Shown here: positions 57,153 through 57,737 of the stretch, one piece after another
How the letters are laid out: each line of letters starts with the position of its first letter
Position numbering within the stretch: the stretch's first letter is position 1
Assembly: GCF_003790525.1 (NCBI RefSeq)
Contig: NZ_CP033635.1
Length of the DNA: 64,000 nucleotides
Strand: one strand, 5' to 3'
Source of the DNA: Escherichia coli
GTDB taxonomy: Bacteria; Pseudomonadota; Gammaproteobacteria; Enterobacterales; Enterobacteriaceae
Made by a program: the position numbers and the translations under genes
The notes under the pieces: generated by a model
Database searches by the model: none
What the model saw: the letters and a program-made list of their open reading frames with translations, nothing else
Told to the model about the DNA's origin: nothing

Positions 57153-57305
57153 CTACTTCTTCGGTTCGTAAGCGAGAACAGCCTTAAACTCAATATTACG
57201 TTCCTTCACCGTAAACTCACACAGCGAGTCTCCGACCAGAAGCGTAAATCCCAGCACCGTCAAACACAGCACTATGACTGCCACAAGGGCATATTTCGTC
57301 AGCAT
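57153..57305 (-). CDS. hokE: Hok-family type I toxin HokE
   Basis: 50 aa [50 protein letters not shown]; stop lies about 20 bp from the IS186 right end. Confidence 0.85.
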
Positions 57306-57737
57306 GTTTATATTGCCTCCATGCGAAGAAGGGACTACCATCCAAATTGTTCGGGTTTGGAGTGGCAGCCCCAGGGTTGATAGAAATATCTCCTGGGGCT
57401 TCATCTTTCCAGACCTCAAAGTTAACCTGAAACCGGAAAGCTTCAGGCACCCGCCGTTATCTTACCCTTCCTCAACAAAATAGCTGTTTATTTATACAGT
57501 AAATCCTGTTTCGGACTTCTCACTCCCCATTTGATCAACTGAAGCTGAACCCGTTTTTATCTGCACGCCTCAATCGTCAAAATTCTTCGCCGCCAGCCAA
57601 CTATGACGCAACTGGTCACATTGCAAAATGTAGCCAATTTGCTTCAGTCACCATCACCAAAAAAAGAAATATTCCAGAACTTCCGCATCTCGCCCAGTCG
57701 CTCCCACTTCTATACTGAATAGAAAACGCCAACATAA

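Follow-up and report, generated by a model that had tools for sequence, protein, structure and literature searches.

What is left of a hok-type toxin locus when an insertion sequence (IS) settles directly behind the toxin gene and leaves the gene itself untouched? This question is raised by hokE in a 64,000-nucleotide stretch of Escherichia coli DNA (RefSeq assembly GCF_003790525.1, contig NZ_CP033635.1; the whole stretch is called the window and all positions refer to it unless another locus is named). Here, a copy of IS186 lies against the 3' side of hokE. The locus is a chromosomal hokE/sokE type I toxin-antitoxin module, located between entD and ybdK in a non-K-12 E. coli strain. Our explanation is that IS186 cut off the 3' regulatory end of this module and in this way disabled a regulated killer; to this explanation as a whole we assign a probability of about 0.85. 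The arrangement as such is already known. It was described for K-12 in 1999, a fact that a first-pass annotation of the window did not mention. Only the opposite orientation of the IS and a population pattern go beyond the knowledge of K-12, and both are modest.

Identity of the locus

The product of hokE matched Pfam PF01848 (HOK_GEF) over all profile positions (1-42/42) with 34 bits (cut-off 22, E = 2.2e-8). The 661 bases around the gene were 100% identical to E. coli strain 702/18, in which RefSeq places hokE between an IS4-family transposase and ybdK. The gene order entD-IS-hokE-ybdK is that of K-12. Further, the Rfam family RF01794 ('sok') was matched in full length on the minus strand with 81.4 bits compared to a gathering score of 59, i.e. 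the sequence match of the locus is far above chance level. The match runs on the hok-sense strand up to the hokE start codon and therefore marks the leader of the hok mRNA, not the Sok strand. The first-pass annotation had correctly recognized a hok-type toxin locus adjoining IS186, with an intact 50-codon Hok-family open reading frame (ORF) on the minus strand. It had put the stop codon about 20 bp from the right end of the IS; the measured distance is 21 nt (57132-57152).

IS186 separates hokE from its 3' fold-back element

The IS186 copy carries perfect 23-bp terminal inverted repeats (55794-55816 and 57109-57131; none are expected by chance), its transposase matched Pfam DDE_Tnp_1 (E = 1.1e-26), and it is 99.9% identical to IS186B of K-12. 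It is bracketed by two copies of a 10-bp target-site duplication. Together with 57142-57145 on one side and 55780-55783 on the other, these copies constitute the halves of an original hairpin, GCGGGGAGCAAUCCCCGC in hok sense. The empty site was rebuilt by deletion of IS186 and of one duplication copy. The outcome agreed with the uninterrupted hokE copies of seven strains, AR_0104, O157:H7 and 95NR1 among those. The rebuilt target, GCGGGGAGCAATCCCCGC, is a GCGGGG-N6-CCCCGC hairpin which IS186 entered 21 nt past the hokE stop; an intact GGGG-N6-CCCC motif was no longer present anywhere in the 64-kb window.

What was lost by the insertion is evident from the uninterrupted loci. There, three elements follow the hokE stop in a fixed order, the hairpin GCGGGGAGCAAUCCCCGC, the fold-back element AGGCACCU and a terminal hairpin with a 14-bp stem. 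The fold-back element and the terminal hairpin were kept in all uninterrupted hokE copies compared. For the rebuilt mRNA of 406 nt a minimum free energy of -168.4 kcal/mol was calculated (z = -5.3). In the predicted structure nucleotides 1-8 (GGGUGCCU) were paired with nucleotides 353-360 (AGGCACCU) with base-pair probabilities of 0.88-0.99. In the interrupted transcript this 5'-3' pairing was lost and the 5' end was predicted to pair locally. The 5' end of the mRNA has one complementary AGGCACC only, at 55746-55752 beyond the 1338-bp IS, and no second AGGCACC was found within 1.7 kb of the interrupted transcript. The first-pass annotation had suspected that an insertion just downstream of hok disrupts the 3' fold-back, and had proposed structure modelling with and without the IS as well as a comparison with IS-free strains. 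Both bore out the suspicion: the pairing is predicted only without the IS, and its 3' partner is stranded on the far side. The outcome named as a refutation, fold-back elements left intact by the IS, was not obtained. In the region 55683-55734 the stranded terminal hairpin is located 20 nt past the stop of the convergent entD and may now serve only as a terminator for entD.

The fold-back is also recognizable in related loci. Homologous counterparts of the 5' end GGGUGCCU are GGCGCUU at the start of the R1 hok mRNA and GGGUGCUU in hokC. A comparison of hokE (GGGUGCC/GGCACC) with R1-type hok (GGCGCUU/AAGCGCC) shows five pairs that are changed on both sides. In K-12 hokC (GGGUGCUUGA/UCAAcGCACCC) 5'-3' complementarity is kept as well, across its own IS186. 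A plasmid locus with a Hok match yet lacking the 5' leader was left out of this comparison. In general, R1 hok/sok/mok, the paradigm of a type I toxin-antitoxin system, and hokE share the order of their parts: -10 hexamer, N6, 5' element, 5' hairpin, Sok-target hairpin, leader ORF and hok, followed on the 3' side by a GC hairpin, the fold-back element and the terminal hairpin, with several of the 5'-3' pairs maintained by double changes. Unlike R1, hokE is chromosomal, has a LexA box and a mok frame which varies by allele, and in the window the 3' elements are severed by IS186. The window hokE is a disrupted member of this family, as fold-back element and terminal hairpin are separated from the toxin gene by IS186. 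The features of the locus are collected in Table 1.

Table 1. Positions of the hokE/sokE module and of IS186 in the window.
Feature	Position	Strand	Basis or remark
hokE coding sequence, 50 codons + TAG	57153-57305	minus	ORF list; Pfam; RefSeq annotation of identical DNA
HokE Tyr46 codon TAC, followed by G	57168-57170; G 57167	minus	UACG context of TadA A-to-I editing site; read from sequence
hokE Shine-Dalgarno GGAGG	57316-57320	minus	10 nt 5' of ATG; within Rfam-aligned leader
hokE mRNA leader, presumed +1 (GGGUGCC...) to hokE start codon	57297-57452	minus	Rfam RF01794; holds 5' hairpin and Sok-target hairpin
Best candidate mokE start: GAGG, 9-nt spacer, ATG	57414-57417; ATG 57402-57404	minus	ATG conserved; use presumed
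5' fold-back partner (tac-like) GGGUGCCU	57445-57452	minus	5' end of mRNA; pairing in rebuilt mRNA
hokE -10-like hexamer TAAGAT	57459-57464	minus	6 nt upstream of GGGUGCC; by homology
LexA box TACTGTATAAATAAACAGCT	57482-57501	minus	overlaps -35 region of hokE promoter
sokE antisense RNA	57349-57408	plus	100% identical to 60-nt K-12 sokE (b4835)
sokE promoter TTGCCT, 17-nt spacer, TACCAT	57313-57318; 57336-57341	plus	start 7 nt downstream, G 57349
IS186 (IS4 family), 1338 bp	55794-57131	plus (transposase gene), convergent with hokE	terminal repeats, Pfam, K-12 comparison
Target-site duplication, right copy, 10 bp GGATTGCTCC	57132-57141		
Target-site duplication, left copy, 10 bp GGATTGCTCC	55784-55793		
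Displaced 3' fold-back element (fbi-like) AGGCACCU	55745-55752	minus	moved away from hokE by 1348 bp compared to uninterrupted loci
Displaced 3' terminal hairpin of hokE mRNA, 14-bp stem	55703-55734	minus	predicted in rebuilt mRNA

The insertion compared with that in K-12

In K-12 MG1655, hokE/sokE (b4415/b4835) is likewise joined by an IS186, termed IS186B. The two loci share the entD-ybdK site, an identical sokE, a leader ATG in frame with hokE and the position of the 10-bp target, which is in the same hairpin about 20 nt past the stop. The orientation of the IS is reversed. In MG1655 hokE and the transposase gene insL2 share one strand, with the left end of the IS facing hokE; in the window the two genes converge and the right end faces hokE. 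In hok sense the duplication reads GGAGTAATCC in K-12 and GGAGCAATCC in the window. Minor differences concern residue 8 of HokE (Val8 in the window, Ala8 in K-12) and the hairpin loop (GCAA and GTAA, respectively). Identity to MG1655 is about 96.7% in the flanks and 99.9% in the IS itself. As the site is the same, the orientation opposite and the lineage another one, the insertions in the window and in K-12 are two independent events.

Two other strains deserve mention here. CAVP766 (locus L010) has IS186 in the orientation of the window on a K-12-like hokE allele, and its two duplication copies (around 684-693 and 2033-2042 of L010) differ by one base, GGATTGCTCC and GGATTACTCC. A third insertion event may be behind this, but recombination within the IS would account for it equally well; the differing copies suggest such recombination or a mutation after insertion. 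In strain Z1323CEC0002 (L011, approximately 300-2000) IS186 is at the 3' hairpin of hokE with a co-directional transposase gene as in K-12. This hokE has acquired a second insertion, an IS150 inside the leader between promoter and ORF.

The transposase frame of the window copy is broken, unlike that of K-12 IS186B. A 1-nt deletion in a run of G at 56000-56004 (five G instead of six in K-12 IS186B, 702/18 and CAVP766) splits the gene into the ORFs 55843-56082 and 56010-56960. The shorter run could be either genuine, which would inactivate the transposase, or an error in sequencing the homopolymer. A 70-nt stretch containing it has exact matches elsewhere, with 77 records at ≥99% identity, and so it may be real rather than an error.

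The geometry of the junction permits the thought that hokE and IS186 are coupled in their regulation. SOS-inducible read-through from hokE would then modulate the transposase, as antisense RNA in the window and in sense direction in the K-12 orientation, and transcription exiting from the IS would add antisense RNA to hokE. There is indeed no terminator between hokE and the IS: the first terminator-like site on this strand, a hairpin followed by TTTTTTATTA (56578-56559, minus strand), is located within IS186 about 880 nt from the hokE +1 and is a possible 3' end of the interrupted transcript. Moreover, both orientations are widespread. Nevertheless, we regard such a coupling as improbable. It is derived from geometry, target preference alone explains the position of the IS, and the frameshift makes the window copy probably inert.

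SokE and the promoters

The sequence of the antisense RNA is preserved without change. K-12 sokE is annotated 44-103 nt upstream of the hokE ATG, and the same segment in the window is identical. SokE consists of a single-stranded 5' tail, a GC-rich hairpin (GCCCCAGG...CCUGGGGC) and a U-rich tail (UUCAUCUUU), with a fold energy of -24.6 kcal/mol (z = -2.8). Its promoter is listed at the same spacer of K-12 in an RpoD genomic SELEX study (PMC3946193). Judged by sequence, it has all properties of a Sok RNA: it is a cis antisense RNA with its own promoter and a terminator hairpin, is complementary to the leader and not to the hok ORF. The sok-like RNA had at first been expected on the plus strand at 57420-57520, which turned out to be misplaced by about 70-110 nt; that region contains the 5' hairpin of the mRNA (up to about 57452), the -10-like TAAGAT and the LexA box. 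An Rfam hit to mir-1990 at 57351-57418 (18 bits compared to 63, E = 0.89) was dismissed as a chance match; the region is the Sok hairpin. In the prokaryotic genome annotation pipeline PGAP a 'hypothetical protein' antisense to the hokE leader is called (57274-57483, plus strand; 2675-2943 in locus L001), often flagged as frameshifted, in many genomes. The call extends over sokE and the 5' region of hok; most likely it is a spurious ORF.

The hokE promoter was placed by homology, that of sokE by means of the SELEX study. A strict sigma-70 promoter scan of 55600-57760 returned no promoter, i.e. both are below its threshold. The arrangement TAAGAT-N6-GGGUGCC of hokE corresponds in position to TATAAT-N6-GGGTGC in K-12 hokC and to TATGAT-N6-GGCGC in R1-type hok. 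The LexA motif CTGT-N8-ACAG (TACTGTATAAATAAACAG, 57484-57501) has the sequence features of LexA regulon members. TACTGT-N8-ACAG had this single match in the 64-kb window compared to an expectation of 0.06. The hokE/sokE pair is listed among the SOS-induced type I systems (PMC11951105).

Over-expressed HokE is toxic (bioRxiv 10.1101/2025.08.07.668861), and in K-12 about 40% of the hokE mRNA is edited from A to I by TadA, which recodes Tyr46 to Cys (PMC12214031); the window has the corresponding codon context (Table 1).

The leader open reading frame

In R1, mok is the leader frame through which hok is translationally coupled. In hokE the leader was compared in 15 copies with intact leader from 10 strains, and the frame was scored in 13 of them. 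The ATG with GAGG 9 nt upstream was present in 15/15 copies. In the window it is at 57404 (mRNA +49), where the leader is complementary to the 3' tail of SokE. This differs from R1, where the mok start is at the 5' end of Sok. Relative to hok the ATG was in frame 0, +1 or +2 among the 13 alleles, brought about by 1-nt insertions or deletions in the leader. Frame 0, realized in the window and in K-12, opens an 83-amino acid Mok-Hok fusion ORF (57153-57404 in the window). Frame +1 gives 62 amino acids and ends 89 nt into hok, and frame +2 gives 22 amino acids and terminates 29 nt short of the hok ATG. The frame of R1 mok is +1; for K-12 mokC the annotation gives frame 0 relative to hokC, like the leader ORF of the window. 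By these alignments the leader start is conserved, the peptide is not. Similarly, it has been stated that Mok is not reliably assignable from sequence (bioRxiv 10.1101/2025.08.07.668861).

In many strains (AR_0104, O157:H7 F8797, 95NR1, LP-26-E1-261 and 372_BP0083) two hokE/sokE copies are arranged in tandem about 500 bp apart. Fold-back element and terminal hairpin are present in each of the two, and the leader frames often differ; the window has a single copy.

The first-pass annotation had suggested an out-of-frame ORF at 57217-57450 as the mok-like coupler. The ORF exists, and the idea was reasonable because its frame is +1, which is that of R1 mok and is opened by the conserved ATG as the 62-amino acid leader ORF of several other hokE alleles. 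The allele in the window does not fit. Here the ATG at 57404 is in frame 0 and does not reach the +1 frame. The sole start of the ORF is a GTG (57448-57450, mRNA +3) which is inside the 5' stem, leaves no room for a Shine-Dalgarno sequence and is outside the region complementary to SokE. Further, the ORF has no Pfam match and the downstream frame of the leader ORF varies between alleles. Use of this ORF in the window is unlikely, and that it is a functional coupler in this strain we consider highly improbable. The ATG at 57404 is the better candidate.

Consequences for regulation

By homology with R1, an uncut hokE might operate as follows. From a weak promoter, overlapped by the LexA box, an mRNA of about 400 nt would be transcribed. 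Its 5' end GGGUGCCU would pair with the 3' AGGCACCU and lock the mRNA in a form inaccessible both to translation and to Sok. Slow trimming at the 3' end would remove the 3' element, and the mRNA would refold. The leader ORF (mok) and hokE would then be translatable unless SokE binds the leader and the mRNA decays. In the window, with IS186 in the GGGG-N6-CCCC hairpin, the fold-back element and the presumably protective terminal hairpin are 1.35 kb off, and transcription of hokE would enter IS186 antisense to the transposase gene. The anatomy of the locus is clear, the 3' elements are displaced and the predicted 5'-3' pairing is lost. On the R1 model the interrupted transcript could probably no longer form a stable inert reservoir, and the consequence would be a locus disabled as a regulated killer of the post-segregational type, as published for K-12. 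There, hokA, hokC and hokE are reported to be inactivated by insertion elements near, not inside, the toxin genes (Pedersen & Gerdes 1999, as quoted in PMC7232551 and PMC12214031). PMC7232551 also names hokX of E. coli B as IS-inactivated. Toxin ORF and sokE are both intact in the window, as are the promoters and the LexA box; hokE should therefore remain transcribable and be kept in check by SokE.

Several points weigh against this explanation. All functional consequences were deduced from predicted structures and by analogy to R1 and K-12, and the +1, the -10 hexamer and the mok start of hokE were assigned by homology. The lack of a conserved mok frame weakens a simple coupling model of the R1 type. 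IS-bearing K-12 still makes hokE mRNA, which is edited to about 40% (PMC12214031), and hokE is on the list of SOS-induced systems (PMC11951105); thus 'inactivated' does not mean silent. Finally, chromosomal loci are not known to mediate post-segregational killing, and intact chromosomal hokA, hokB and hokC reportedly gave none (bioRxiv 10.1101/2025.08.07.668861). The IS may then change little phenotypically.

Possibly, IS186 is even neutral for the chromosomal hokE. In that case hokE would be a LexA-controlled, SokE-buffered and SOS-inducible membrane toxin, the fold-back a relic of a plasmid era, and the IS would have been placed by target preference. This is compatible with the intact LexA box, promoters, sokE and toxin ORF, with the SOS listing (PMC11951105), with the detection and editing of the mRNA in IS-bearing K-12 (PMC12214031) and with the reported absence of post-segregational killing by intact chromosomal loci. 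In addition, the same GGGG-N6-CCCC hairpin was hit in three hok paralogs, as target specificity alone predicts. We nevertheless think it unlikely. Fold-back element and terminal hairpin were strictly kept in all uninterrupted hokE examined, and the 3' elements covary with the 5' end between paralogs. Conservation and covariation argue for selection on the chromosome, too. Further, loss of the 3' elements is predicted to alter the folding of the whole mRNA.

IS186 at hok loci of other genomes

The frequency of such insertions was estimated in a database of 5,426 complete E. coli genomes, which is clonally biased; the junction numbers are estimates from rank sampling. hokE::IS186 was estimated at about 210-310 records in the orientation of the window and at about 1,660-1,760 records in that of K-12. 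Altogether, about 1,900-2,100 of the 5,426 genomes, i.e. about one third, have IS186 at the hokE hairpin. An internal IS186 probe was present in 2,193 of the 5,426 genomes, hence most IS186-bearing genomes carry a copy at hokE. The raw junction counts at ≥80% coverage, 1,056 for the window type and 1,873 for the K-12 type, were rejected as too high because they include hokX::IS186 (90.8% identity) and hokC::IS186. The number of genomes with an empty site, 3,646, is an upper bound inflated by tandem hokE copies and joined pieces.

IS186 was also found at two other hok genes. hokX::IS186 in the cysH-cas3 spacer was estimated at about 520-720 records, hokC::IS186 in either orientation at a few hundred. 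In K-12 hokC (gef)/mokC/sokC, with IS186A, and in hokX, IS186 is positioned about 20 nt past the stop, within the homologous GCGGGG-N6-CCCCGC hairpin. At all three genes IS186 sits in this hairpin and is flanked by a 10-bp duplication. hokC and hokX differ from hokE as they are other paralogs at other chromosomal sites with other fold-back sequences. Single cases are strain 127, with IS186 directly after hokX in the homologous hairpin (cysH-cas3), and strain RS571, with IS186 directly after hokC (nhaA-dnaJ) in an orientation opposite to that of K-12 IS186A. Both orientations occur at hokE as well as at hokC, and the insertions at hokE, hokC and hokX go back to five or more independent events.

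Insertion hot spots of IS186 are known (quoted in PMC11251521). At lon, IS186 destroys a promoter, whereas at hokE it severs a 3' untranslated regulatory region. SaiSree et al. reportedly described in 2001 that the IS186 target is palindromic, with a G-rich part, a spacer and a C-rich part, and that insertions recur in both orientations. The insertion site at hokE is explained by this target preference, and the homologous hairpins of hokC and hokX were taken as well. On the chromosome, IS186 seems to reside mainly in the 3' hairpins of hok loci. That they are its main long-term homes, and that insertion was favoured by selection in addition to target preference, we consider doubtful. If true, insertion would disarm an SOS-inducible toxin or expose IS186 to read-through that starts at an SOS-inducible promoter. 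To our knowledge there is no prior analysis of the population-scale pattern, of the recurrence in both orientations or of a selective benefit.

Other features of the window

Further Rfam matches above the gathering score were the cspA thermoregulator (9305-9753, minus), the rnk leader (22732-22840, plus), STnc70 (26603-26696, minus) and ES036 (CssrF; 54963-55004, plus). The ES036 match falls just within the 5' part of the ORF region of entD.

Conclusions

Loci of the hok/sok type depend on a long-range RNA fold-back between the 5' and 3' ends, and in many E. coli this fold-back is severed by an IS while the toxin gene is untouched. Annotation pipelines mark hokE and the transposase but miss sokE, the leader ORF, the LexA box and the stranded 3' elements. 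The occurrence of IS186 in one type of hairpin, in three hok paralogs, in both orientations and in a large share of the genomes is a natural example of target specificity which repeatedly disables one and the same regulatory RNA element.

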